From Minisyncoccota bacterium (GTDB lineage: Bacteria > Patescibacteriota > Minisyncoccia > Phycocordibacterales > XYD1-FULL-46-19): a DNA stretch of 64,000 bases. The position numbers were made by a program, and so were the translations under genes. Location of the stretch: contig JBBABX010000001.1 of the NCBI GenBank assembly GCA_041657405.1, positions 12,152-76,151 of the forward strand, written 5' to 3'. The notes under the pieces are model-generated. The model had not been told where the DNA came from. It was given only the letters and a program-made list of their open reading frames with translations, and made no database searches. This document shows positions 3,287-49,528 of the stretch, in pieces; the first letter of the stretch is position 1; every line of letters starts with the position of its first letter.

Positions 3287-4318
3287 TTAGCTATTTATAA
3301 CATTTTTTAGCAAATTTTCCAATTTATCCGTTTGCTCCTCGCAACTCGGAAAATTTTTAACAAAATCCAAACCATTAGCAACAATTTTCTGACGTAGTCC
3401 ATTATCACTAACTGCTTGACCTAACTTATTTATCAATCCTTCTAGGTCACGTCGCGGTGCAACCAAAGCCGTTTGTTCATCAAAGGCGTAGTCCCGATTA
3501 CCACCGTTATCATAAGTAACAACCATCGAACCACAAGCCATCGCCTCTAACGGTGGCATCCCAAATCCTTCATCCCAAGATGGACAAAGAAAAATATCAC
3601 AACTTGAATAAATTTCGGCAAGTTTTTTTTGCGGTGGATTAAAGTAGTATTCATCACAAATCTCTGGTTTTTGACCGCGAACTCCAAACATTACTAACTC
3701 CAATTTTAAACTAGAAAACTTTTCTTTCACCGCTTGATAAGCTTTCAACCCATCTTTTACCCCTTTCCAAGGATAAGAATGGTTCAACATTAAAACCCTA
3801 ATTTTGCCAGTTTCTTTCTTAACAGGAATTGGTTGAAAAAGATTTTTATCAAGTGGCTCTAGAAACAGAGCTCCTTCTTGCCCGAAGTCTTTCCGTAAAA
3901 TATTTTTTAGCCAAGTTGAAACAACCACTTTCTTAGTAGGTGCGGCGTAAACCTTGGAGACTTCTTCAGATTGACCATGATACAAGCGTTCATCATGTTG
4001 AATAAATTGAATTTTTCGACCAAATTTTTCAGGCAAAGTTAAAACAAACTGACCCACTTGCCAAGAATCACCCACTACAACATCAGCTTTTGACAAATAT
4101 TTTGGAGACCATTTCGGCAAGAATTTAACTTTTGCTTCTAAGGGGCCAAACCAACGCGGCTCTTTATACCAAATTTTTTGCCAACGCCGGAAAAATCTTC
4201 TTTCCGTAGTTGAAATTGTAACCTCGTAACCACGTTTACCCAGAATATTAGCATAAGACAAAATTATCCGAACCCCGCCAGAAATCTTCAAATGAGGCAA
4301 TAAAAAATTAATTTTCAT
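3287..4318 (-). CDS. GT1/GT4-family glycosyltransferase. The start is placed at the internal MKINFLLPHL; the ORF track extends further upstream.
   Basis: Carries the E-x7-E region FGMPPLEAMACGSMVV typical of GT4. It overlaps the upstream methyltransferase gene by 11 nt. Confidence 0.65.
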   Translation of the reverse strand: MKINFLLPHLKISGGVRIILSYANILGKRGYEVTISTTERRFFRRWQKIWYKEPRWFGPLEAKVKFLPKWSPKYLSKADVVVGDSWQVGQFVLTLPEKFGRKIQFIQHDERLYHGQSEEVSKVYAAPTKKVVVSTWLKNILRKDFGQEGALFLEPLDKNLFQPIPVKKETGKIRVLMLNHSYPWKGVKDGLKAYQAVKEKFSSLKLELVMFGVRGQKPEICDEYYFNPPQKKLAEIYSSCDIFLCPSWDEGFGMPPLEAMACGSMVVTYDNGGNRDYAFDEQTALVAPRRDLEGLINKLGQAVSDNGLRQKIVANGLDFVKNFPSCEEQTDKLENLLKNVINS

Positions 4319-9216: not shown

Positions 9217-10251
9217 TTAATTCAAACTAGTTATTAATTTTTCGACAAGCAATTTAAGACCGTGATGTCTTGCAACATAATCTTGAAGTTCTGAAACTAA
9301 TTTTCTTTTTTCAGCCGGAGCTAAACCCAAAAGTTCTCTTAATTTTTTGGCCAAATCAACAAAATCATCTTCTTCAAAAATTAAGCGATCGTCAATTTCC
9401 CCAATTAAATTCTGGTTGCAAACCAGGACCAAACAACCACAGGCCATTGCTTCAAAAATTGTTTTGTCATACATCCCGCTTGAGCTAAGATTAACAAAAA
9501 TTTCGTGACTGCGATAGATTTTAGGCGCCTGATGGTTTGTCACACCAGCATAAAAAGTAAGATTATCGACTAAGATTGAATCTGCAACATTTTGTTTTAA
9601 GGTTTCTGCCCAAATCTGATTATCCGGCAAATAATCACCATAAAAACTAACTTTAAAATCTACCCTATCTTCAGCTAACAATTTTAGGGCTGAAATGAAA
9701 ATATCTGGTTTTTTGACAGGAGCCAAACGCGCTAAAAATAAAATTTTTCCAAGACGAAAATCATTATTTTTTTCAAGCGAATTAAAAAAACTCAAATTAA
9801 TCCCGACCGGCATAAGAATATTCTTTTTAAATTTTGCGGTGTATGAATAACGCGAGGTGCAAAAAATTTTATGACAAAGAGCAACTGCTAAATTAGTTAA
9901 ACAATTACCAGCATGATGATTTCGCCACATTGTAATTTTTTTGCCCATAAGTCGCCACCAACAACCTGCTAATAAAACATACTCCTGATTCATATGCACA
10001 AAAACTGTGTCATAGTTTTTTCGTTCCTGCCAAAGATATTTATAAAAACGCCAAATATATTTAAATTTCGATTGCCCTTCTTCTTTGCCTAGTGACAGCA
10101 CCTTAACCCCTGATAAATCATATTCGCCCTTCTCTAAACAGATAATTGTCATCTGTTTAACATGTTCAGCAAATTCTTTTAACCAACCATGGAAAAACCC
10201 TAAAATTGGGTCATTTTTATCGACTTTTTGGGTGATAATTAAAAGCTTCAC
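9217..10251 (-). CDS. GT1/GT4 glycosyltransferase.
   Basis: Carries FEAMACGCLVLV in a C-terminal GT-B domain. Confidence 0.65.
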   Translation of the reverse strand: MKLLIITQKVDKNDPILGFFHGWLKEFAEHVKQMTIICLEKGEYDLSGVKVLSLGKEEGQSKFKYIWRFYKYLWQERKNYDTVFVHMNQEYVLLAGCWWRLMGKKITMWRNHHAGNCLTNLAVALCHKIFCTSRYSYTAKFKKNILMPVGINLSFFNSLEKNNDFRLGKILFLARLAPVKKPDIFISALKLLAEDRVDFKVSFYGDYLPDNQIWAETLKQNVADSILVDNLTFYAGVTNHQAPKIYRSHEIFVNLSSSGMYDKTIFEAMACGCLVLVCNQNLIGEIDDRLIFEEDDFVDLAKKLRELLGLAPAEKRKLVSELQDYVARHHGLKLLVEKLITSLN

Positions 10252-16745: not shown

Positions 16746-16828
16746 AAGATAACCAAAAATAAGTATTTTGACTCCCCCACCTTAAAAATAGTCCGGAGAC
16801 GATTTTTAAGGTGATCAAAACATCTTAA

Positions 16829-16880
16829 AATCCCCCAATCTCCCAAAAATTCGCCTGAATTTTTGGGAGATTGGGGGATT
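16829..16880. terminator. 21 bp perfect inverted repeat (aatcccccaatctcccaaaaa / tttttgggagattgggggatt) with a 10 nt loop. Probable terminator of the upstream gene and insulator.
   Basis: An exact stem read from the sequence, followed by a T-rich tract. It lies between the end of the glycoside-hydrolase-like gene and the paralog A promoter. Confidence 0.5.
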
Positions 16881-16941
16881 TGAGAATTGTTTTTTCATCT
16901 TTTTTCAAGAAAAAAGTCTAAAATTTGATAATTATTTTTAA

Positions 16942-18964: not shown

Positions 18965-19687
18965 TCAGACTTGCACCGGAGCCGAAGATTCCGAGGGCTC
19001 CAGGTCTAAATTGCGGGAGAACACCTGGAAGCCGCCACGCCACCGAACCGGGCTCCCGACTGAGTCCGCACCGACGTCCCAGCCGCCGCCGCGCCAGTGC
19101 ACGAGGACCGCGCGAAGCACACCATTCTTGTCCCGAATGTAGAATATGTTGGAGAAGCCGTTGTCCAAGAGAACACCGTCTTCACCATTCTTCTGCTTCT
19201 CCATGAGGGAGAACATCTCCGCCAAGGTGGTTTCGGCTTTCGCTTCGCCACCAAGTTCGGTGATGATCGGACCATCAACCGAAGACTTCCGCAATTTGTG
19301 GTAGCGGAGCATCTGTTCGCTCTCCGGGTCTTCGGTTTTGCCGTCGCCAGAGAGGAACCAGTTGGTGAAGTTGTCGCCGAGGCTGGAACAAATACCTCCG
19401 TCTCTCTTCAACTTAAAGTAGTCCTTGTCGACGAACGGAACCGTGGTCGCGGGAATCACAACGGTGCCGACCGGTTTGAGCAAAAGCTCGGGTTTGGCCG
19501 GTTTAACAGGGACAACGGATGCTTGAGGAAGGAGGCAACCTGCCAGTTTCTCTCTGAGACCTTTTTGGTTGCTAGTCCATCCCTCGGCCGTTACCTGATC
19601 AATCTCCCCCGGGCGAGGAGCTTGGCGCAAAAGTGCTGCTTGAAATTCAATATACCACCCCGGGATTTCAGTTAAGGCTGTACTCAT
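18965..19687 (-). CDS. GC-rich paralog B: hypothetical protein with an FGE/C-type-lectin-like C-terminus (HWRGGGW...GGFQVFSR). Candidate DGR variable protein.
   Basis: A 240 aa GC-rich ORF. The core from PVGxVVIPATT to the C-terminus aligns with paralog A; the N-terminal ~60 aa are unrelated. Confidence 0.6.
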   Translation of the reverse strand: MSTALTEIPGWYIEFQAALLRQAPRPGEIDQVTAEGWTSNQKGLREKLAGCLLPQASVVPVKPAKPELLLKPVGTVVIPATTVPFVDKDYFKLKRDGGICSSLGDNFTNWFLSGDGKTEDPESEQMLRYHKLRKSSVDGPIITELGGEAKAETTLAEMFSLMEKQKNGEDGVLLDNGFSNIFYIRDKNGVLRAVLVHWRGGGWDVGADSVGSPVRWRGGFQVFSRNLDLEPSESSAPVQV

Positions 19688-19800
19688 GATGAGCTGTTCC
19701 TTTCTCCTATTGTTTCTTTGTTAATTTGGTACGGAAACAATTCCCATACCTTCTACCTATTATTATACGCCCAAACTCATCTTTTGTCAATGGTTTAATC
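19688..19800 (-). promoter_or_regulatory. Conserved promoter and 5' leader of paralog B.
   Basis: On the minus strand it reads TTGACA-17 nt-TATAAT, then a leader with purine-rich AGGAGAAAGGAA before the ATG. Confidence 0.55.
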
Positions 19801-19851
19801 CAATAGTGTCTCAAATTAAGTCTTTTTTGCTTCAAGCCCCAAGGTCCGTTT

Positions 19852-19898
19852 GGCTAGGTCCGTCCTAGACCAAAAAATGGTCTAGGACGGACCTGGCC
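19852..19898. terminator. 20 bp inverted repeat (ggctaggtccgtcctagacc / ggtctaggacggacctggcc) with loop aaaaaat, between murC and the paralog B promoter.
   Basis: Read directly from the sequence; one T/C difference between the arms (U-G in RNA). Confidence 0.5.
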
Positions 19899-19999
19899 AG
19901 ATTTGTTCTTTTTATTTTAATTTTTAAATTTTAATCTTTACCCCGTTAGAAATCAACCACTTTTTTTCCTCTTTGGGTTCTTTAAGAGTTTGCCATGCT

Positions 20000-21379
20000 T
20001 TATTTTGTCACCTTAAGTGTATGAAAGTCTCCATTTCTAACGGGGTTAACTTTCATCTCTTCCCCCACCTTATAGATATCCCCGGCGCCGATGGTCATTA
20101 TCAAATCACCCTCCCCTGTCTCGGTCTTTAGAGCTTCCGCGATTTCAACAAAACTAGTCAGGGCGCGCACATTGGGGTTTTTGACCGCGATAGCTCCAGC
20201 CAAAATTTCAGAACTAATGGTCGGATCGGCCGGTTCACGCGCGGCATAAATCGGCGCCAAAATAATCTCGTCGGCCAAGGCCAGTTTGTCGGCAAAATCT
20301 TCTTTTAAAATTTTGGTGCGACTGTATAAATGAGGCTGAAAAACCGCAATCAGTTTCCCAGTCATTTCACGCTCCGCCATAAACTCGCGCGCACCAGACA
20401 GGGTCGCCTCAAGCTCGGTTGGATGATGTGCGTAATCGTCATAGACCAAAGCACCGGTTTCCATTTCGCCTTTAAATTCAAATCGTCGCCAGGTCCCGGC
20501 AAAGTCACGCAAGGCTTCAATGGCAACTTTCTCATCAATCTGCAAGGTTTCCCCCACCGCCAAAACCGCGCTCGCGTTTAAGAGATTGTGCCGACCCGGG
20601 ACCGTCAGTCCAAAAGCTGATATTTTTTCAAAATATTTTTTGTAATCAATAATTGTCGCTTTCGCTTGCGCCAAAACCGGCTTTAAACGCGGATCATTTT
20701 TGTCACAAATCACAAAACCGTCCGCCGGCACCTTGGACGCAAACTCCGCAAAGGCCGACTGAATATCGACCAAGTCTTTGTAGTAGTCCAAGTGATCATT
20801 ATCAATATTGGTAATGACCGCAATCTTTGGTGACAAATTAAGAAACGATCGTTGATACTCGCAAGCCTCCACCACCAGATATTCGCTATTACCAGCGATA
20901 AAATTGGTTCCCCCCGAAAAAGCATCGTCCACACTCTTGCTTTTTAGCAAACTGCCAACCACCACCGTCGGTGACAGGTCGGCCGCCAACATCATTTCCG
21001 CCACCATGGCTGTGGTAGTAGTTTTGCCATGAGTGCCAGCGATGGCAATGGTATATTTTTCGGCCGAAATTAAACCAAGCGCTTGCGGATAAGTGAGGCA
21101 CGTAATTCCCTTAGTGTGCGCGGTCACCAATTCTGGATTATCATCAGGAATGGCAATAGTATAAACAACCAAGTCAATATCCGGCGCAATATTCTCGGCT
21201 ACTTGTTGATAAAAAATCTTAACGCCTAGTTTTTCCAGTTCTTCAGTCACAAAAGACGACGCGCGGTCTGAACCGGACACTTGTTTGCCCTCACCCAAAA
21301 ACATCCGCGCCAAAGCTGACATTCCGATACCGCCAATGCCGATAAAATGAATTTTTTGGCTGGTTGTGATGATGGACAT
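20000..21379 (-). CDS. murC: UDP-N-acetylmuramate--L-alanine ligase.
   Basis: N-terminus HFIGIGGIGMSALA, Mur ligase middle domain GTHGKTTTT, 459 aa. Confidence 0.85.
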   Translation of the reverse strand: MSIITTSQKIHFIGIGGIGMSALARMFLGEGKQVSGSDRASSFVTEELEKLGVKIFYQQVAENIAPDIDLVVYTIAIPDDNPELVTAHTKGITCLTYPQALGLISAEKYTIAIAGTHGKTTTTAMVAEMMLAADLSPTVVVGSLLKSKSVDDAFSGGTNFIAGNSEYLVVEACEYQRSFLNLSPKIAVITNIDNDHLDYYKDLVDIQSAFAEFASKVPADGFVICDKNDPRLKPVLAQAKATIIDYKKYFEKISAFGLTVPGRHNLLNASAVLAVGETLQIDEKVAIEALRDFAGTWRRFEFKGEMETGALVYDDYAHHPTELEATLSGAREFMAEREMTGKLIAVFQPHLYSRTKILKEDFADKLALADEIILAPIYAAREPADPTISSEILAGAIAVKNPNVRALTSFVEIAEALKTETGEGDLIMTIGAGDIYKVGEEMKVNPVRNGDFHTLKVTK

Positions 21380-21473
21380 TACCCTATTATAAGCTAAGCT
21401 TTTAAGCTTTTATAGTTGACCAAAGTTTTTATTATGTTATGGTGTGCAAAGATTTAACCAGGAGGAAAAAGGA

Positions 21474-21644
21474 TGGGCACAAAAACCAAGCCTCGGAATA
21501 TTTTTGACGAAGTTTCTGAATACTTCGACAAAAATGGTAGTCTGCCGACACATATCCCGCCTGAACATTTGAGGGAACTGCGTGACGCTGTGAACCCCAA
21601 GACCGCCCTCGGTAAGGCCCTATATAAAAACTACCCTTACTGAA
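21474..21644 (+). CDS. Small hypothetical protein (56 aa) missing from the ORF track.
   Basis: ATG preceded by CAGGAGGAAAAAGG (strong SD, 8 nt spacing). The ORF is MGTKTKPRNIFDEVSEYFDKNGSLPTHIPPEHLRELRDAVNPKTALGKALYKNYPY and is followed immediately by a rho-independent terminator. Confidence 0.35.
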
Positions 21645-21663
21645 AACGAAATTCCCTCTCGCC

Positions 21664-21693
21664 AAACCGACCTCTGTGGTCGGTTTATTTTTT
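21664..21693 (+). terminator. Rho-independent terminator (aaaccgacc-tctgt-ggtcggttt followed by a T-run).
   Basis: A 9 bp GC-containing stem, 5 nt loop, then T7. Confidence 0.55.
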
Positions 21694-22198
21694 AATTTAG
21701 ATCAGAGTGGTTGTATATCGCCAAAATCTCTCTGTAAGACAATTGATCTTTGTCGCCATATGTATAATGGTTTTTGGCAATGATTTTTTTCTCAGTACTA
21801 TTTGAGATCGCCATTTCATTACCTAAATAAAAACCGATATGTTGATGATTATGACTGTTATCCAGTGGCTTATCCCAAACAATAACACAACCCGGTTTTA
21901 GGTCATCGGTTTTTTCCCAACCGGCCTTTTCCAACGCCGTGATTGTCCCGTTAACCGTCGCATGTAAGCGATCAATCAATCCAAAAATCGCCAAGAGGCT
22001 CGATACATAAAAAGCACAGGAAAGTTTGCCGTCTTCCAGAATATCTTTCTCCTCACCATCCACTTTGGCATAGAGATGACGGAACATCTCAGTTCCCACG
22101 CTTGCCTCAATGACGGCCAAAAAAGATTTTAAAGTCAGTGGCTTAATTATTTTGTCTTTATTCTTCTCTTCCATTTTACATTTTAATTCCCTATTCAA
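21692..22198 (-). CDS. NlpC/P60 (C40)-like cysteine peptidase-domain protein. No signal peptide is evident.
   Basis: A Cys in LSCAFYVSSLL followed by HIGFYLGNEMAISNS, matching the NlpC/P60 Cys...His-x-G-I/F-Y-x-G arrangement. It sits between murC and murD. Confidence 0.45.
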   Translation of the reverse strand: MNRELKCKMEEKNKDKIIKPLTLKSFLAVIEASVGTEMFRHLYAKVDGEEKDILEDGKLSCAFYVSSLLAIFGLIDRLHATVNGTITALEKAGWEKTDDLKPGCVIVWDKPLDNSHNHQHIGFYLGNEMAISNSTEKKIIAKNHYTYGDKDQLSYREILAIYNHSDLN

Positions 22199-22212
22199 TA
22201 TTCCATATTCTA

Positions 22213-23610
22213 CTATATTCTCTTCACTTGCTTATTAAATTGATCCCCCCGATCGTACTCATTCTTGAACACCCCAAAACTCGCTGCGCCAGGCGACAAA
22301 AGCACAACATCTCCCCGCTTGGCCTTGGATTTAGCCCAAGCAAAAGCCTCTTTCATATTATCAAAAACCCTAATCGCCTCCCTGGAGAGGGTAACCCTCT
22401 CCTCAGAGCCCTGGAGAGGGTTACCCTCTCCAGGGCCTCCTTCTGTTAAGAATTTTAGGATTTTATCAGTCGCCGTACCACGAAACAGCGCCAGGGCTTT
22501 GATATTTTGTCTGACCACTTTGATATAAGTAGTGTAGTCCAGATTTTTGTCGGCTCCGCCACCTAACAAAATAATTTTGCCTTTGTACTTTTTGAGCGCT
22601 TCTAAGGCGGCCAAGACCGCATCCGGCGTGGTGGCATTGGTGTCGTTATAATATTTGACTCCGCCTTTGTCGGCAATTAATTCCAACCGCCCCGACAAGC
22701 CCGGAAACTCGGCAATCGCTTTTTTGCTAATCTTGTCAGGTACACCCAGTTCGCGCGCGGCCGCAACGGCTAGGGCAATGTTCTCTACATTATGTTCGCC
22801 CAGCAAGTTGTGTTTCCAACTGGCTGGCAAATCACTTTTTTTGATAATTTTAAATCGCCCTTTAATACCCGCCTTGTCTTTTTCTTTAATCACCTTGGCG
22901 GCTTGCGGTCGCGCGAGCAAAATATCAGCTTTAGTTTGCCAACGATAAATATTCGCCTTGTCGGCAAAATACTTTTCCATGCTGTCCTTATAGTAATTTT
23001 GATGGTCATTCAAAAAAGTGGTAAACAAGGCAAGGTGTGGACTAATCCGGCTTTCGCCAAAACCTTGCAATTGCCAGGAATCAAGTTCCATCACGACAAA
23101 ATCGCCTGGTTTAACTTTTTTAAGCAAAGGCAAAGTTGCAATTCCCTTAACATTACCTCCTAAATAAACCCTCTTATCACCAAAATTTTCTTTTAAAATT
23201 TCACATAATAAATGAGTCACCATACTCTTGCCACGCGTGCCAGTTACACCAACAATTTTTACTCCGGCTGGTGCTAATTTTACAAAAAGCGAGGCATCCA
23301 TTTCTACTGAGATTTTGCATTTCTTGGCCTCGGCAATAAACGGCGAATCAAGTGGCACACCAGCAGCTTTAATTATCATGTCGCGGTCTTGAAAATCTTT
23401 AAGTTTATGTTCGCCAAGAATATATTTTATATTTTTGAAACTAGTTAGTTTTTTGAGCGAAGGAGCCAATTGTTCTTTTGTCTTCAAATCAGTCACAACC
23501 AGATCGGCATTATTTTCGGCCAAAAACTTAACCACCCCAATCCCCCTTCCCAAGAGACCAAGACCCATCACGGTGATTTTTCGCCCTTGAAAATAACTTT
23601 TATAGTCCAT
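22213..23610 (-). CDS. murD: UDP-N-acetylmuramoylalanine--D-glutamate ligase, carrying an in-frame REP-derived insertion near the C-terminus.
   Basis: N-terminus KITVMGLGLLGRGIG and VGVTGTRGKS. The start is set at MDYKSYF because the track ORF extends into the tRNA. Confidence 0.8.
   Translation of the reverse strand: MDYKSYFQGRKITVMGLGLLGRGIGVVKFLAENNADLVVTDLKTKEQLAPSLKKLTSFKNIKYILGEHKLKDFQDRDMIIKAAGVPLDSPFIAEAKKCKISVEMDASLFVKLAPAGVKIVGVTGTRGKSMVTHLLCEILKENFGDKRVYLGGNVKGIATLPLLKKVKPGDFVVMELDSWQLQGFGESRISPHLALFTTFLNDHQNYYKDSMEKYFADKANIYRWQTKADILLARPQAAKVIKEKDKAGIKGRFKIIKKSDLPASWKHNLLGEHNVENIALAVAAARELGVPDKISKKAIAEFPGLSGRLELIADKGGVKYYNDTNATTPDAVLAALEALKKYKGKIILLGGGADKNLDYTTYIKVVRQNIKALALFRGTATDKILKFLTEGGPGEGNPLQGSEERVTLSREAIRVFDNMKEAFAWAKSKAKRGDVVLLSPGAASFGVFKNEYDRGDQFNKQVKRI
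22381..22437. repeat. REP-like palindromic doublet (ggagagggtaaccctctcc and ctggagagggttaccctctccag) inserted inside the murD coding sequence.
   Basis: Hairpin units with a 7 bp stem (GAGAGGG/CCCTCTC) and a 3 nt loop. The same 19-21 nt unit flanks the Y1 transposase at 47.7 and 48.5 kb. murD reads through as GPGEGNPLQGSEERVTLSREAIRV. Confidence 0.6.
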
Positions 23611-23669
23611 AAAGAACATTTTAGCACAAGAAAAACTTAGGTAAAAACTCCGCCGAAGCGGGGTTCCTG

Positions 23670-23743
23670 TGCGCATGGTAGGACTCGAACCTACGACCTC
23701 GTCATTATCAGTGACGCGCTCTAACCACCTGAGCTACACGCGC
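23670..23743 (-). tRNA. tRNA-Ile (anticodon GAT).
   Basis: A cloverleaf folded by hand: acceptor GCGCGTG/CATGCGC, D-arm GCTC-AGGTGGTTA-GAGC, anticodon loop CTGATAA, T-arm GTAGG-TTCGAGT-CCTAC, discriminator A, CCA not encoded. Confidence 0.8.
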
Positions 23744-23829
23744 AAAATTTAAGCCAAAAGTTAAGAATAAAAAATCTTAACTCCGACTTTCCTTAGGAAT
23801 ATACCAAAAAAACAAGTCAAAAACAAGTC

Positions 23830-23861
23830 AAAAAAGACCCGCATCAATTGTGACACGGGTC
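23830..23861 (-). terminator. Rho-independent terminator of the 23883..24215 gene (gacccg...cgggtc followed by T6 on the minus strand).
   Basis: A 6 bp GC stem with a 14 nt loop, followed by TTTTTTG on the transcribed strand. Confidence 0.4.
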
Positions 23862-23882
23862 AAGAGGAATGTAACAAAGAAT

Positions 23883-24215
23883 TTATCTGAACCCTTTGTC
23901 ACGAAGTCGTTCGGCCTCCATTTCTTCATTAGAGGCATTGGGCCTCCAATATGGGGACACAACTAAAACCCGAAATTTCTCAGGTTCTCCAAACCTTGAA
24001 ACGTAAGATTGGTAATCATATTCCACCAATTTTCCGTCTTCCGAGATTCTTACCCCTAGACGGTTATCTAGAGAATCAATAAGAACCTCTGGTTGGTTCA
24101 GAACTTGAAAATAGATGGTGAAAAAGATCCCTGCAATAACTAACAGGCCAATTACCGAAACACCATCAAAAAGAAGCTCTCTGGTTTTCATTTTTTCTCT
24201 CCTTTTTTTACTCAA
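23883..24215 (-). CDS. Hypothetical small membrane-anchored protein.
   Basis: A 110 aa ORF with an N-terminal TM helix and no recognisable motif. Confidence 0.3.
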   Translation of the reverse strand: MSKKRREKMKTRELLFDGVSVIGLLVIAGIFFTIYFQVLNQPEVLIDSLDNRLGVRISEDGKLVEYDYQSYVSRFGEPEKFRVLVVSPYWRPNASNEEMEAERLRDKGFR

Positions 24216-24319
24216 AATCCATTCTAAGTTTAATTATATCATAATCAGTCTTAAAAGTCAACTAAAATTTAAAACCTTTGGAGACCAAAAAACCGTTTGG
24301 AACAAAGTTCCAAACGGTT

Positions 24320-24535
24320 TCAGGGTTGTTTAGACTTCAAACCTAATCTTAAATCATACAGATATTGATTTAGACCATAACCAGGTCTTCTGGCTACAAG
24401 AAAATAGTTACGACGGCGCTGAACAAATTTAGCGCACACTCCGCAAAAAATTTTATCTTCACCATCAGCCCTGATTATCGCTCCCCATTCGGACCCAAAG
24501 AGTTTCCCACACTTTGAACATCGTGCCATGCTCAT
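24320..24535 (-). CDS. Small zinc-ribbon protein (CxxC...CxxC).
   Basis: MARCSKCGK...CGVCAK, 71 aa. Preceded by AAGGAGG 6 nt upstream of the ATG. Confidence 0.4.
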   Translation of the reverse strand: MSMARCSKCGKLFGSEWGAIIRADGEDKIFCGVCAKFVQRRRNYFLVARRPGYGLNQYLYDLRLGLKSKQP

Positions 24536-24630
24536 TTCAACCTCCTTGTTTTGTAAATCTTAGGTCTGGAAGAACTTTCTATTTTTATCATAAAATTTTT
24601 TAACTCATTAAGCAACAATGTCTAACCAAT

Positions 24631-24661
24631 AAAAACACCTTTTTTTCAGGAGGTGTTTTTT
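24631..24661. terminator. Hairpin flanked by A and T runs (aaaaacacct...aggtgttttt). Probable terminator downstream of the 16S rRNA.
   Basis: An inverted repeat flanked by A5 and T5, about 220 nt beyond the 16S 3' end. Confidence 0.4.
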
Positions 24662-24877
24662 GTTTAAGCATTACAATTTTTTTAGGATATTATCTTTTCT
24701 TCTGTTCCGTTTCCCAATTTAACGATTAAGGGGTATCGAGTTCCTTGTTGTTTCGATTTCTTCGAAAAAAACCGAAAGAGTGCGGAGAACTATCACTCTC
24801 GCCATGTCAATAAATTGACATGGCGATCGACCAGTCAGGCCATTAGCCGTTAAACGGCAAGATCTGACCAGTTCAAT

Positions 24878-26372
<1,495 letters not shown>

Positions 26373-31469: not shown

Positions 31470-32780
31470 TTAGATACCTTTTCGCATTATTAAAGTTTTA
31501 ATCGTTTTTAGAGCAATACTAACATCCAACCAAAAACTGCGATTTTTAATATAATATAAATCATAAGCAAATTTAACCTTAGTTTCGTTGACGCTAATAC
31601 CATGATGAGGTTCGCCATCTTGGTGAATTTGTGCCCACCCCGAAAGACCAGGTTTGATAATATGTCTAATATTAAAATATGGAATATCTTGACTGTATAA
31701 AGCCACTGGATCAGCAAATTCTGGACGCGGACCTACTAATGACAAGTCGCCGATCAAAACATTCCATAATTGTGGTAATTCATCTATCCTAGTTTTACGC
31801 AAAAATTTACCGACTTTAGTCACTTCATTTCTACCCTCTCCCCACTTGGCACCATCGTAAGCAATTTTCATTGTGCGAAATTTAATTAAAGTAACTAGTT
31901 TTCCATCTTTACCTACTCTTTCTTGAAGAGAAAAGATAACTCCCCCATCGTCCAATTTGATAGCAACATAAACAAAAGGATAAACCAACAAAGAAATCAG
32001 CCCCGCGACCAAGGCAAAGGTAGCATCCATTAATCTTTTTAAGGCGTCATATACTGGCTTGGGTCGATTAGAAATATTTTCTAAAAACCATTGTTCTTTA
32101 ATAACATTGACCAACTCTCGGTCAAAAAGCTCTTCGTAAAGATTGTGAACTGAAATAAAACGAATACCAGAAAAAATCATCTTATAAAAATTTTTTAAGG
32201 CTTCATGAATATTTTCATCATACAAATCCACCACTACCGCAGTAACGCCAGATGATCCAATTTTTTTAATATCATCATAGTCAGCTATTTCTATGTTATA
32301 ACGAGGATTATTTTTTATCTCTTCTACAATCTCTGTTACTTCTGCTCCGCGACAAGTAAAAAGTATTTTTTCTCTTTGAGTTAAACTAATATTAGGCGCA
32401 AAAAAGCGACGCCAGCCAAAAATAAGAATGAAAGATAAAATCAAATCAAGAAACAATATTGTTTTTGGAGTAATTCCAAAATAAGGAATAAAATAAAAAA
32501 AGACAACCGCGATAGTGCTATTGACTAATAAAGAATTAAAAATCAATCTTGGTAGACGGCGTTGAAAAATCACTGTTTGTTTGCCGTAAAGACCAGCTAT
32601 GTAAAAAACCAGAATCCAAATCAAAAAAATCACCGAAAAGGGTTGAAGGTGTCGATAAAAAACTCCCTCTTCGGGCCAAGCCAAAGTCCTTAAAAATAGG
32701 GCCAGCCATAAAGCCAAATTGAAAAGCGCTAGGTCTCCCAACAATAAAATTATTGTTTCTTTTTTTGATTGCAATTTCAT
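31470..32780 (-). CDS. Polyprenyl-phosphate glycosyl-1-phosphate transferase (bacterial sugar transferase, WbaP/WcaJ-like priming enzyme).
   Basis: The C-terminal domain carries DLSLVGPRPE and the KPGLSGWAQI hallmark of the bacterial sugar transferase family. There are N-terminal TM segments. Confidence 0.75.
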   Translation of the reverse strand: MKLQSKKETIILLLGDLALFNLALWLALFLRTLAWPEEGVFYRHLQPFSVIFLIWILVFYIAGLYGKQTVIFQRRLPRLIFNSLLVNSTIAVVFFYFIPYFGITPKTILFLDLILSFILIFGWRRFFAPNISLTQREKILFTCRGAEVTEIVEEIKNNPRYNIEIADYDDIKKIGSSGVTAVVVDLYDENIHEALKNFYKMIFSGIRFISVHNLYEELFDRELVNVIKEQWFLENISNRPKPVYDALKRLMDATFALVAGLISLLVYPFVYVAIKLDDGGVIFSLQERVGKDGKLVTLIKFRTMKIAYDGAKWGEGRNEVTKVGKFLRKTRIDELPQLWNVLIGDLSLVGPRPEFADPVALYSQDIPYFNIRHIIKPGLSGWAQIHQDGEPHHGISVNETKVKFAYDLYYIKNRSFWLDVSIALKTIKTLIMRKGI

Positions 32781-47158: not shown

Positions 47159-47611
47159 TTCTGTGAGTTCGGGTTTTTAATTAAAGAATACGAAAATAAA
47201 ACCTGATTATTATCCAAAACAACAAACTCAAATCTATCATCTCCGACCAAGGTCCCGGTTTCAACTTTTTTTAAATCACTCAGAAGCAAGCCAACTCCTC
47301 CACTTTTAAAACCAGCCTTAAACCCCCCCCCCACCCCCCCCCCTCTTCTCCGGCACAAAATAACTGGCCGCCAAGCCGGCATCACCAGCTTCCAGCGCTG
47401 CCACAAACAAATCCAAGGTTTCTTCCGGTGTCTCCCCGCCGTTAGTATCCGTCCGATAAGTTTCTTCTATCGCCTCAAATTCCGCCAAATGCTTGCGATT
47501 CAGATATTCATACCAATAAAACGAAAGGGTCTGTGGACCCCAAATCACACCCCAAATTATCAACGCGACCAAAACAACCAGGCCACCAATAAGCCAAATT
47601 TTCTTTTTCAT
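47137..47611 (-). pseudogene. Small membrane-anchored protein gene split into two overlapping frames by a homopolymeric G10-T-G9 tract. Either a frameshift or a phase-variable switch.
   Basis: The 47318..47611 frame ends ...EKRGGGGGGV*, and the 47137..47406 frame continues GGGFKAGFKSGGVGLLLSDLKK... A 1 nt length change in the tract would fuse them. Confidence 0.4.
47324..47343. repeat. Homopolymeric tract C9-A-C10 on the plus strand (poly-G on the coding strand).
   Basis: Read directly from the sequence; it lies inside the split gene. Confidence 0.7.
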
Positions 47612-47691: not shown

Positions 47692-47750
47692 GTGGATAAC
47701 TAGCCAATCTAGGAGAGGGTAACCCTCTCCTAGATTGGCTAGTTATCCAC
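47692..47750. repeat. 28 bp-stem extended palindrome containing the REP core (gtggataactagccaatctaggagagggtaaccctctcctagattggctagttatccac) at the 3' end of the Y1 transposase.
   Basis: A perfect inverted repeat around GAGAGGG-TAA-CCCTCTC that overlaps the transposase stop codon. Confidence 0.55.
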
Positions 47751-48428
47751 TCTTTCTTTTTCTAACTCTTCTCTCCTCTTTTTATAGTCCATAACTAACA
47801 AATCAATATCTGATTCTTCAAAATCAGGGAATTCTTTTCTATCCAACAAGTTTGATTCTGGTCTTTCCCCAACAAAAAAATCATAATAGCTGGAAAAAGA
47901 ATGGGCATCCAAACTCTTTTTTATTTCGTCAATATTAGAATTCTCTTCACTTTCCCACTCGGGAAACCTTACTTTTACAGGGTTTAGATGGATGTAAGAA
48001 ATTAGATATTGATAGTAACTTTCGGAATCAATATGTTGAGCTTTAAAAGTACCTTCAAATAATCTACCCCTTCTTTTATATTTTAAATTAAAAAACATAG
48101 AGTGGCTCGTTTGTATTTTATTTAAAAACTTTGATATGCCACCTTCTTCAACTTCCTTAAGTAGCAAGTGAAAGTGGTTTGGCATCAGACAATAAGCACC
48201 AATATTAACAAGTGGATCACCTTTTCTTTTTGTTAAAAAGATATTTTTACCTCTATTTTCTTTAAAAATCTTTTCCATAGTAATTGGTTCCTTGTTGTTT
48301 AAAGCATAAAGAATCTTTACAAATCTAGAATGGTCATTTTTATCCTTAAAAATAACACGTTTTTCAACACCACGATTATAAATGTGGTAATATTCATCCA
48401 TTGCAAATTTAAATTTCCTTTCCACCAT
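47739..48428 (-). mobile_element. tnpA: IS200/IS605-family Y1 (HuH) transposase (REP-associated tyrosine transposase-like) with an acidic C-terminal extension.
   Basis: YHIYNRGVEKRVIF...CLMPNHFHLLL (HuH motif)...YQYLISYIHLNPVK (catalytic Tyr region). It is flanked on both sides by palindromes carrying the same core. Confidence 0.7.
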
Positions 48429-48456
48429 TATATTATAATATTATATACCAAATCGG

Positions 48457-48517
48457 AAGAGAGGGTTACCCTCCAAGGAGGAAAAGAGGAGAGGGTAACC
48501 CTCTCCTCTTTTCCTCC
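48457..48517. repeat. REP-like palindromes at the 5' flank of the transposase (gaagagagggttaccctcc, plus an extended 19 bp-stem palindrome ggaggaaaagaggagagggtaaccctctcctcttttcctcc).
   Basis: The same GAGAGGGT(A/T)ACCCTCTC core as at 22381..22437 and 47692..47750. Confidence 0.55.
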
Positions 48518-48607
48518 TTAAGAAAACTCCCAAGCATTGTGTAAAAGCTGCCATAGGGCGGACCTGGTCGAAGTTAGGAAGGCAGGGAAAACAATATATG
48601 CGCCTCT

Positions 48608-49528
48608 CTAGTACTCAATTCTATCCACAAGAAGACCTTGATTGTCGTAAAGAGCTAAATAACCGTTGCTTTTTCTAAAGATGTTGCTTGAATAACCTAA
48701 ATAAACGCGCCAGGTGTCACCCAAGAAGTACTCTTGATTTTTTCGTTTATTGAAGCAGTTTTCGTAACCAAAAATTTCTTTTACCAATCGTCGACAAGAA
48801 GAAGGTATTTCACAATAATTGTTTACACAATCACCGTCAATCTTGGGTTCAACACAACGCGGCAAGCGACGAACTAAATAATAGCACTCGTCTCTAATCT
48901 CATCCCGATCCACAAATTCTAATTCCGAAGGACAACGAACGCTTAGTTTAGGCTTAAAATTCAAACCAGACAAATTCTCTAAATAGCCCATACAAACATT
49001 TTCTTTGAAACTGGACTCTAGGGGGAGTTTCCGCCCTGCAGGATTATCACCCACTGAGATAATTGCTGAGTCGCCAGGATAAAGAACTAACGGCACTCTA
49101 GTATTGCCAGTTGTTTGGTAAGGATTATAATATTCAATCGCCCCAACTGGCAGAACAATTTTTTTATTATTTTTCTTACTAGAAGAAGTGCTGCCACTTT
49201 GAACAGTCCAACCACCAATATAGACTGGGCCAGCTTTCCAACTACGATTAGTAATATAAAAATATTGATCATCTGGATAACTAGCCGAACGAATGTTCCC
49301 CAATTTTATTTTGATATTTTTACTATAAGGACTGACGTTTTCTATTTCTCCAGATACCTTTTTTTCGTCATCTTGATTTTGAGTGTTACCCATTGACAAT
49401 AACCCTCTTTCGCCAACTAAGACATTAGGGATTGAACCAGCTTCTTTTCTAACAATTCCGCCAGACAACCACAGGGCAAACATTATCACAATAACCATCA
49501 AAAACCATAGACCATCTGATTTAGGCAT
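48608..49528 (-). CDS. Secreted protein with a lamin-tail-like (LTD) beta domain and a Cys-rich C-terminal half.
   Basis: An N-terminal TM/signal. IGGWTVQSGS...IVLPVGAIEY...LYPGDSAIISVGDNP resembles LTD, and the protein ends LALYDNQGLLVDRIEY. There are 12 Cys in the C-terminal 150 aa. Confidence 0.35.
   Translation of the reverse strand: MPKSDGLWFLMVIVIMFALWLSGGIVRKEAGSIPNVLVGERGLLSMGNTQNQDDEKKVSGEIENVSPYSKNIKIKLGNIRSASYPDDQYFYITNRSWKAGPVYIGGWTVQSGSTSSSKKNNKKIVLPVGAIEYYNPYQTTGNTRVPLVLYPGDSAIISVGDNPAGRKLPLESSFKENVCMGYLENLSGLNFKPKLSVRCPSELEFVDRDEIRDECYYLVRRLPRCVEPKIDGDCVNNYCEIPSSCRRLVKEIFGYENCFNKRKNQEYFLGDTWRVYLGYSSNIFRKSNGYLALYDNQGLLVDRIEY

Follow-up and report, generated by a model that had tools for sequence, protein, structure and literature searches.

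A probable REPIN-like hairpin pair within a loop insertion of MurD, and its kinship to the flanks of a RAYT-class Y1 gene, in a Minisyncoccota bacterium

How does the gene for an essential peptidoglycan enzyme come to carry a pair of palindromes within its reading frame? The question is posed by murD in a 64,000-nucleotide stretch of a Minisyncoccota bacterium genome (contig JBBABX010000001.1; hereafter, the window), in which a GC-rich hairpin-forming unit occurs twice inside the coding sequence and again on both sides of a Y1 HUH transposase-like gene 25 kb away. An earlier note on this DNA had attributed the murD copies to dissemination of hairpins by a repetitive extragenic palindrome (REP)-associated tyrosine transposase (RAYT) or from the ends of an IS200-type insertion sequence (IS). 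That reading is largely supported, as attempts to overturn it, whether through orthologues carrying the same segment or through an absence of the core elsewhere in the genome, failed both times. We consider it probable that the murD segment is a REPIN-like, that is inverted, pair of REP-like units belonging to the family that brackets the Y1 gene, whose product is of the RAYT class.

Exact copies of the 19-nt palindrome GGAGAGGGTWACCCTCTCC are found at four places in the window, two of them within murD (22384-22402 and 22413-22431) and two at the Y1 locus (47712-47730 and 48488-48506), as against no matches in 100 dinucleotide-preserving shuffles of the same sequence. A mismatch-tolerant search recovered a fifth, degenerate unit of this family at 48459-48475; looser patterns (GGGTWACCC, GAGGG..CCCTC and half-sites) yielded no additional copies in the 64 kb, and the lone half-sites at 31833 and 44225 were rejected as they are not hairpins. 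Folded, the core has a single central base and a 9-bp stem, or on another count a 3-nt loop and a stem of 8 bp, where the earlier note had given 7 bp; it thus presents the GC-rich, hairpin-forming unit of about 20-40 nt that characterizes REPs and REPINs. Within murD, the doublet (22380..22435; 56 nt) is built from a 23-nt arm at 22380-22402 and its exact reverse complement at 22413-22435, with a 10-nt spacer between them. In the coding orientation, its first unit, centred on T on the plus strand, is a perfect 29-nt palindrome (GCCCTGGAGAGGGTTACCCTCTCCAGGGC; 22408..22436), and the second, centred on A (22384..22402), has the core GGAGAGGGTAACCCTCTCC. The palindrome pair announced in the earlier note is thus present, with its second unit moved from 22411..22433 to the 19-mer and 29-nt palindrome just described.

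With arms that are 100% complementary, the inverted-pair arrangement of a REPIN is present; the description of the units as tandem holds equally well, and the two orientations are told apart by the centre base alone. In strain L036 both murD units are centred on T, the base at 22422 being flipped relative to the window, which weakens strict inverted orientation as a defining trait of the doublet. The murD units are perfect palindromes, and their doublet folds as single-stranded DNA with -29.4 kcal/mol (z = -7.7). Against a G+C content of 38% in the window, the insert is conspicuous as a GC-rich segment.

The identification of the host gene as murD (22213..23619, minus strand; UDP-N-acetylmuramoyl-L-alanine--D-glutamate ligase), made in the earlier note, is secure: TIGR01087 matches the protein with 320 bits, above its cutoff of 212, and all three Mur-ligase domains are found. 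It further keeps every residue that is invariant over an alignment of its 120 closest proteins (59-92% identical), among which the nearest named homologues belong to Candidatus Paceibacterota, of the Candidate Phyla Radiation (CPR). The real length of MurD is 468 residues, and an identical protein (P0001) is present in the database; a longer reading frame of 487 residues collides with a tRNA gene (23670-23743), which lies directly upstream on the same strand. Beyond the tRNA, the 3' end of the 16S rRNA gene begins at 24877 (minus strand; feature 24877-25000).

Between the motifs DKIL and FDN, 81 of the 120 MurD homologues have 12 residues, as against 30 in the window protein, a net lengthening of 18 residues; the earlier note had placed the addition in the C-terminal domain, correctly, and had set it at about 22. 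The segment is otherwise found in just two of these homologues (P0002 and P0003), and all aligned solved structures of MurD are gapped at its position. The doublet codes for most of the extra loop (PGEGNPLQGSEERVTLS), in an intact frame whose translation (...TEGGPGEGNPLQGSEERVTLSREAIRVFDNM...) had been given correctly. In an uninserted relative (L037) the site reads TTA GGC AAA ACA AAA TTT CCG GTG GAA ATT TTT GAT. An assembly artefact was rejected as the source of the insert, which is kept in frame in the independent assemblies L036 and L001 from other samples as well as in the window, and the MurD alignments likewise rejected an ancestral segment. On these alignments, the murD segment is a derived, lineage-specific in-frame insertion, as had been anticipated. 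The earlier guess of a surface loop also fares well: in an AlphaFold2 model of the protein (mean pLDDT, the predicted local distance difference test score, 87.9), residues ~394-412 form a coil with a pLDDT of 46-58, a predicted disordered loop placed between a helix (384-393) and a strand (416-419) of the C-terminal domain. Helix-to-strand loops of Rossmann-like folds face away from the ligand-binding edge, and the insert would accordingly be expected in a permissive loop away from the substrate-binding edge.

The other home of the core is the Y1 gene (47739..48428, minus strand), the only one of its kind identified in the window, whose 229-residue product carries the motifs NHFH and YIHLNP and an SS tail. 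It passes the Pfam profile Y1_Tnp ('Transposase IS200 like'; 32.1 bits, cutoff 23), and H85, H87, Y145, N149 and P150, along with S179 and S180, are invariant in 28 aligned homologues. According to the motifs tabulated by Quentin et al. (2018; PMC6006769), Y---NP marks class 2 (TnpA_REP) and Y---Q marks IS200; subclass 2.1, with NH[YF]H, Y[IV]HLNP, an SS tail motif and a median length of 238 residues, corresponds to group 1 of Bertels and the 'TIRYT' of Di Nocera (PMC6006769). Judged by these motifs, the Y1 enzyme is RAYT-class and not IS200-type, and its motifs and length fit subclass 2.1, a placement by motif comparison. A C-terminal helix-turn-helix (HTH)-like domain is a feature of the subclass 2.1 'TIRYT' proteins, as are long terminal inverted repeats, in place of REPs, on either side of the gene; a Pfam scan of the Y1 protein returned no HTH domain. 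There are more than 7,800 database matches of about 220 residues, those with a named source coming from Patescibacteria, and the nearest homologue outside its own strain is about 50% identical. The sole solved relative is E. coli TnpA_REP (4ER8), with a weak match (E = 0.29). The gene order EF-P, RecA, FtsK, PG_binding_1, Y1 is common to the window and to L032 and L033 even though the Y1 proteins are only 46-54% identical, which points to long vertical inheritance rather than to a hopping insertion sequence. Its motif, its length, its syntenic place and its copy number all led us to reject an IS200 identity for the gene.

As the earlier note had stated, the core recurs here in hairpins that bracket the gene, one unit lying on one side (47712-47730) and two on the other (48459-48475 and 48488-48506). 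The left palindrome (47692..47750), delimited correctly in that note, is a perfect 59-nt palindrome with a 29-bp stem and the 19-nt core at its tip, and it overlaps the stop codon and final residues of Y1 (VDN*). On the right, where the note had given 48457..48517, we find a perfect 45-nt palindrome (48475..48519; 22-bp stem), again with the core at its tip and with outer arms unlike those of the left one, and a degenerate unit centred on T (GAGAGGGTTACCCTCCA; 48456..48475) that adjoins the Y1 start and pairs with the neighbouring palindrome to form a doublet spanning 48456-48508. As single strands, the left and right palindromes fold with -33.2 and -28.1 kcal/mol, respectively. These flanks are self-complementary palindromes with a common core, being neither plain terminal inverted repeats nor canonical REPs.

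Similar arrangements with other sequences are seen around Y1 orthologues. L034 has four copies of CCGCTAGG-N5-CCTAGCGG in 2.2 kb, two of which bracket the orthologue in inverted orientation; L032 has ACGGAGGG(CTA/TAG)CCCTCCG, inverted, on either side; and in L033 a GAAGGAC.GTCCTTC family lies upstream of the Y1 gene, in-frame within it and again 6 kb off. Such a hairpin changing along with its enzyme between lineages is, on these comparisons, the REPtron pattern. The L033 copy within Y1 (10164-10188; TTCGGGAAGGACAGTCCTTCCCGAA) encodes REGQSFPN in a length-variable region of the family. Where a hairpin stands upstream of a Y1 gene, we also note an extended -10-like motif (TGGTATAAT or close to it) immediately following it, in L032 (9976-10000 and 10698-10725), L033 (9970-9995) and the window (48429-48456); the upstream hairpin may thus coincide with the promoter or shortly precede it. 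L039, with a Y1 protein 98% identical to that of the window, differs from 48429-48450 by an 8-nt indel (TATAATAT) in the AT-rich DNA that separates the hairpin from the Y1 start.

Several observations tie the two loci to each other. One murD unit of L001 (AATCTTGGAGAGGGTAACCCTCTCCAAGATT) matches the copy flanking Y1 in the window (AATCTAGGAGAGGGTAACCCTCTCCTAGATT) at 29 of 31 positions, and the doublets are alike in unit-to-unit spacing, with 29 nt for the murD pair and 30 nt for the pair at the Y1 gene. Taken with the shared 19-mer, this makes it unlikely that the murD palindromes are wholly local in origin.

Comparisons between strains illuminate how the palindromes change once in place. In the 29-nt palindrome, three stem pairs differ on both sides between the window and L001 (two C-G pairs becoming T-A, and one G-C pair A-T), and the stem gains another pair; these compensated changes alter the encoded residues from GP..G to NL..D. 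Window and L036 show two differences over 700 aligned bases, one of which is the unit centre base at 22422. The Y1 locus of L039 has a 45-nt palindrome with a flipped centre base, and five bases outside the 59-nt palindrome read, in place of AAAGA, AACCT, the reverse complement of the opposite flank in the window (AGGTT). If that opposite flank is kept in L039, the stem would grow from 29 to 34 bp, with an R-to-P change at the C-terminus of Y1; the contig ends within the palindrome, leaving the far arm unseen. Quasipalindrome mutagenesis, by fold-back or strand switching, is an established process in E. coli. The clustered changes of L039, and as the stems of L001 suggest also those of murD, resemble its products in that they perfect or extend a palindrome. 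We see in the compensated stems, flipped centres and outward extension signs of templated upkeep, and on the same comparisons it is not conservation of the encoded peptide that holds the palindromes. That the outer arms are particular to each copy, and yet perfectly paired, is explained by templated change, selection on the hairpin not being required. Templated change is, however, a process and not an element, which accounts for upkeep and growth and not for a core shared by two loci.

The murD site has been occupied by more than one hairpin family. An insert of at least five residues is present there in 28 of the 120 homologues, with no other internal site going above 8, and elements of three families share the codon position in sister lineages whose MurD proteins are 79-92% identical. 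The family described above, famA, with two GGAGAGGGTWACCCTCTCC units at the site, is that of the window, L036 and L001 (P0001, P0002 and P0003). In L035 (P0020) the site holds famC, namely CTTGAGGAGGACGGTCCTCC CTTAA GGAGGACCGTCCTCCTCAAG, two palindromic units with a 20-bp stem, and in L002, L003 and L004 (P0021 and P0008) it holds famB, in which TTTGGTCTAGGTCCGTCCTAGATC is followed by GATCTAGGACGGACCTAGACCAAA to form a perfect 48-nt palindrome. An intergenic famB palindrome unrelated to famA also lies downstream of murC in the window (AGGTCCGTCCTAGACC / GGTCTAGGACGGACCT; 19851..19899), and the downstream-of-murC position is shared by three strains (19851-19899 in the window, 6205-6257 in L001 and 5855-5907 in L035), with the sequence TTTGGCTAGGTCCGTCCTAGACC AAAAAA TGGTCTAGGACGGACCTAGCCAAA. 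The outer arms TTTGG...CCAAA are the same at the intergenic and murD sites, and by this comparison famB is a genuine dispersed repeat. CGTC also occurs within its units, which gives them a likeness to REPs tagged with CGTC.

The junctions of famA and famC are the same (AATCTTG on the left, AGGGAGG or AAGGAGG on the right), and their cores differ. Such common junctions are compatible with replacement at a resident hairpin and leave open the alternative of three independent insertions. Since, in addition, the dispersed famB occupies the site in a third lineage, one might imagine the murD loop not just as a permissive landing place but as a fixed 'cassette', in which the RAYT-like enzyme that is active in a lineage at the time would act on the hairpins already there and exchange the resident pair for its own family, a proposal that we regard as unlikely. 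Were it true, the Y1 family of Patescibacteria, with its thousands of members (>7,800 matches), would quite generally supply core proteins with short in-frame insertions, which template-switch repair would hold perfectly palindromic.

Other palindromes in these genomes touch on the same theme. A second in-frame hot spot of MurD lies after residue 147 of the window protein, where the window murD is ancestral and uninserted; relatives carry there a hairpin pair, CCGTTCGACCAAGGGTCGAACGG plus GAAACGGTTT...AAACCGTTTC, encoding RSTKGRTVGRNGLLG (L001 2474-2492, L035 2149-2171, and the equivalent position in L036 and L002). A thioredoxin-reductase-like gene of L034 contains a 50-nt perfect palindrome with a 22-bp stem (3751-3800), which encodes VAEALLLQTSKSKASAT and, going by its sequence, may likewise be an in-frame palindromic insert in a patescibacterial core gene.

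How, then, would the pair have reached murD? We propose that the hairpins are recognized on single-stranded DNA and cut and rejoined in trans by the Y1 enzyme, and that one hairpin pair would thus have landed in murD. The copy that survives is in frame and has lengthened the helix-to-strand loop of the C-terminal domain by the residues counted above; as the Rossmann-like fold suggests, MurD would stay functional, with selection merely filtering for tolerated copies. In place, the palindromes are held perfect, and even extended, by fold-back or strand-switch changes of the kind seen between strains, and the loop is a recurrent landing or exchange site, as its occupation by three families in sister lineages shows.

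A number of points weigh against this account. In the 64 kb of the window, the family numbers five units, confined to two loci. Scans for the exact core found 4 stretches in 185,579 species genomes, 22 in a metagenome collection and 1 in viral contigs; those from this organism, in L010 and L019 only, are both the Y1 locus, and the rest are unrelated hairpins, mostly terminator-like. These scans could not yield a genome-wide copy number for the core, and across window and collections neither high copy number nor the genome-wide spread implied by the dissemination claim of the earlier note was shown. No unpaired GT[AG]G or CGTC stands at the hairpin foot beside the murD units or the right-hand Y1 palindrome; the left Y1 palindrome begins with GTGG and ends with CCAC, yet those bases are paired. 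The Y1 protein scores 43.9 bits against its best NCBIfam match, the RAYT model NF047646, below the cutoff of 80, and no REPs have been reported for subclass 2.1, the subclass that its motifs fit (PMC6006769). Compared with L037, the insert is not a clean addition, as part of the ancestral codons has been replaced. Moreover, murD is a mosaic between strains: its C-terminal 600 bases are 99-100% identical in window and L036 and its first 600 only 77-84%, a pattern that, on these alignments, indicates recent homologous recombination. The insert was therefore able to travel by that route and may have reached this lineage by homologous recombination and not by transposition. Finally, the action of Y1 on these hairpins is a proposal drawn from sequence. 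On the other side, the low copy number fits the group 1 RAYTs, whose flanking 16-mers are repeated only modestly (Bertels et al., 2017; PMC5581495). On balance, the element resembles in its behaviour a REP/REPIN linked to an enzyme of the RAYT class, lacking the tag and the demonstrated abundance that are classical for such repeats.

Three other explanations deserve to be weighed against the REPIN-like one. Of these, a host-selected function of the hairpins, be it expression tuning, replication or transcription pausing, or use as a processing site for a domesticated Y1, draws on the compensated changes that preserve palindromy while the peptide varies, on the strong hairpin pair kept at the site by all three sister lineages, and on the argument that RAYTs are themselves domesticated (PMC5581495). 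However, the 81 homologues with the short loop do without the insert, templated mutation of the kind seen in L039 can keep palindromy without selection, and an Rfam search of 19000-25000 found no known RNA family, only sub-threshold hairpin look-alikes (mir-3158 and similar); we judge such a function quite unlikely. A Y1 gene with two hairpin ends might instead be an autonomous IS200/IS605-type element, and the murD doublet a miniature made of its fused ends, comparable to a palindrome-associated transposable element (PATE) or a MITE (a miniature transposable element with inverted repeats). The parallels are Y1 HUH chemistry, signalled here by the Pfam match, hairpin ends recognized on single-stranded DNA, with hairpins here on both sides of the gene, and short non-autonomous two-hairpin derivatives, which the murD doublet resembles as a minimal left end joined to a right end; in addition, many Y1 homologues come from contigs about 1 kb long, a frequent fate of repeats in assemblies. 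That explanation is nonetheless very unlikely, as the enzyme has the class 2 YIHLNP in place of Y---Q and 229 residues as against ~150 for IS200 TnpA, there is no tnpB-like neighbour (the one neighbour scanned, a 306-residue protein at 48608-49528, is without a Pfam match; a 97-residue reading frame lies on the other side), and the ends are perfect palindromes with one core. The window, besides, has a single copy whose nearest non-self homologue is only about half identical, and its syntenic position, despite that divergence, fits vertical inheritance rather than hopping.

The third explanation is that the murD palindromes arose locally, through template-switch mutation in a segment coding for the loop or convergence on a stable hairpin, their likeness to the Y1 flanks being coincidental. 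The hairpin is indeed an easy one to reach, given that the same 19-mer tips unrelated terminator-like hairpins in diverse organisms, and templated extension of a palindrome is on view in L039. Against this stand the exact 19-mers, four in 64 kb and none in shuffles, the close match of the L001 murD copy to the Y1 flank, and the clear dispersal of famB, with the same outer arms at intergenic and murD sites, all of which make a local origin extremely unlikely. The REPIN-like pair thus remains the reading that we favour.

This reading finds its closest precedents in REPs that lie within genes. REPs occur inside genes in several species, over half of the intragenic inserts being dimers that encode 20-30 residues, and the sequences on either side of RAYT genes, REPs in some cases and inverted repeats in others, include self-complementary ones (Di Nocera et al., 2013; PMC3733652). 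REPs are also found in-frame inside tnpA_REP genes, and the view that such inserts fall in flexible loops is cited there (Quentin et al., 2018; PMC6006769). The earlier note had called an in-frame REP insertion tolerated inside a Mur ligase uncommon; in-frame REP dimers in genes are less exceptional than that implies, being documented in several phyla (PMC3733652; PMC6006769). Like the murD doublet, the intragenic dimers consist of short, often oppositely paired palindromic units set in-frame in genes for known proteins, and the cognate tyrosine transposase gene is bracketed by hairpins that may overlap its 3' end, as here. They differ in carrying a GTAG/CGTC tag, whereas the murD units are untagged perfect palindromes for which high copy number has not been shown, and in targeting genes for DNA repair and replication, in contrast to a Mur ligase of a Paceibacterota (CPR) host with three families at one site. 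The REPIN/RAYT systems, exemplified by E. coli TnpA_REP (4ER8), share with the present one HuH and Y---NP motifs, a single syntenic gene flanked by hairpins, an inverted doublet, and a hairpin sequence that shifts with the enzyme between lineages; the differences are that this Y1 is weak against 4ER8, lies below the NCBIfam cutoff and is of subclass 2.1 or group 1 type, and that its repeat family looks small.

The Rickettsia palindromic elements (RPEs) are the classic in-frame palindromic inserts (cited in PMC3733652). They lie in coding genes, including essential ones, and are tolerated at non-critical positions, which makes the likeness to murD one of behaviour alone. Elements of the RPE-1 type are roughly 100-150 bp long and have no associated transposase. 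The murD element thus differs both in host and in size, its 56 nt being shorter.

Two further features of the window are recorded here. Its longest inverted repeat (16808-16901) is imperfect, with 45-nt arms that are 82% complementary across a 4-nt spacer. A long poly-C tract (47318-47340), which reads as poly-G on the minus strand and codes there for a run of glycines, lies at the end of the reading frame 47318-47611. Contig L010 departs from the window at four places, every one of them within this tract, and is identical elsewhere; the tract is either a hypervariable homopolymer or a weak spot of sequencing or assembly.

A full-text literature search pairing REP/RAYT with Patescibacteria or the CPR found no description of such a system. 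What is new, then, is the CPR host, the presence of three hairpin families at the same murD site, and the signs of templated upkeep. If the REPIN-like reading is right, selfish hairpin repeats linked to RAYT-class enzymes would operate even in the small, streamlined genomes of the CPR, and would be able to reshape even an essential peptidoglycan enzyme. A single loop that hosts three unrelated families offers a natural series for distinguishing site choice, replacement and selective filtering, and the strain comparisons provide a clean example of what appears to be templated mutation within a coding sequence, in which palindromes are corrected and extended. For annotation, more generally, GC-rich loops of low model confidence in proteins encoded by the AT-rich genomes of the CPR may be repeat-derived rather than functional.

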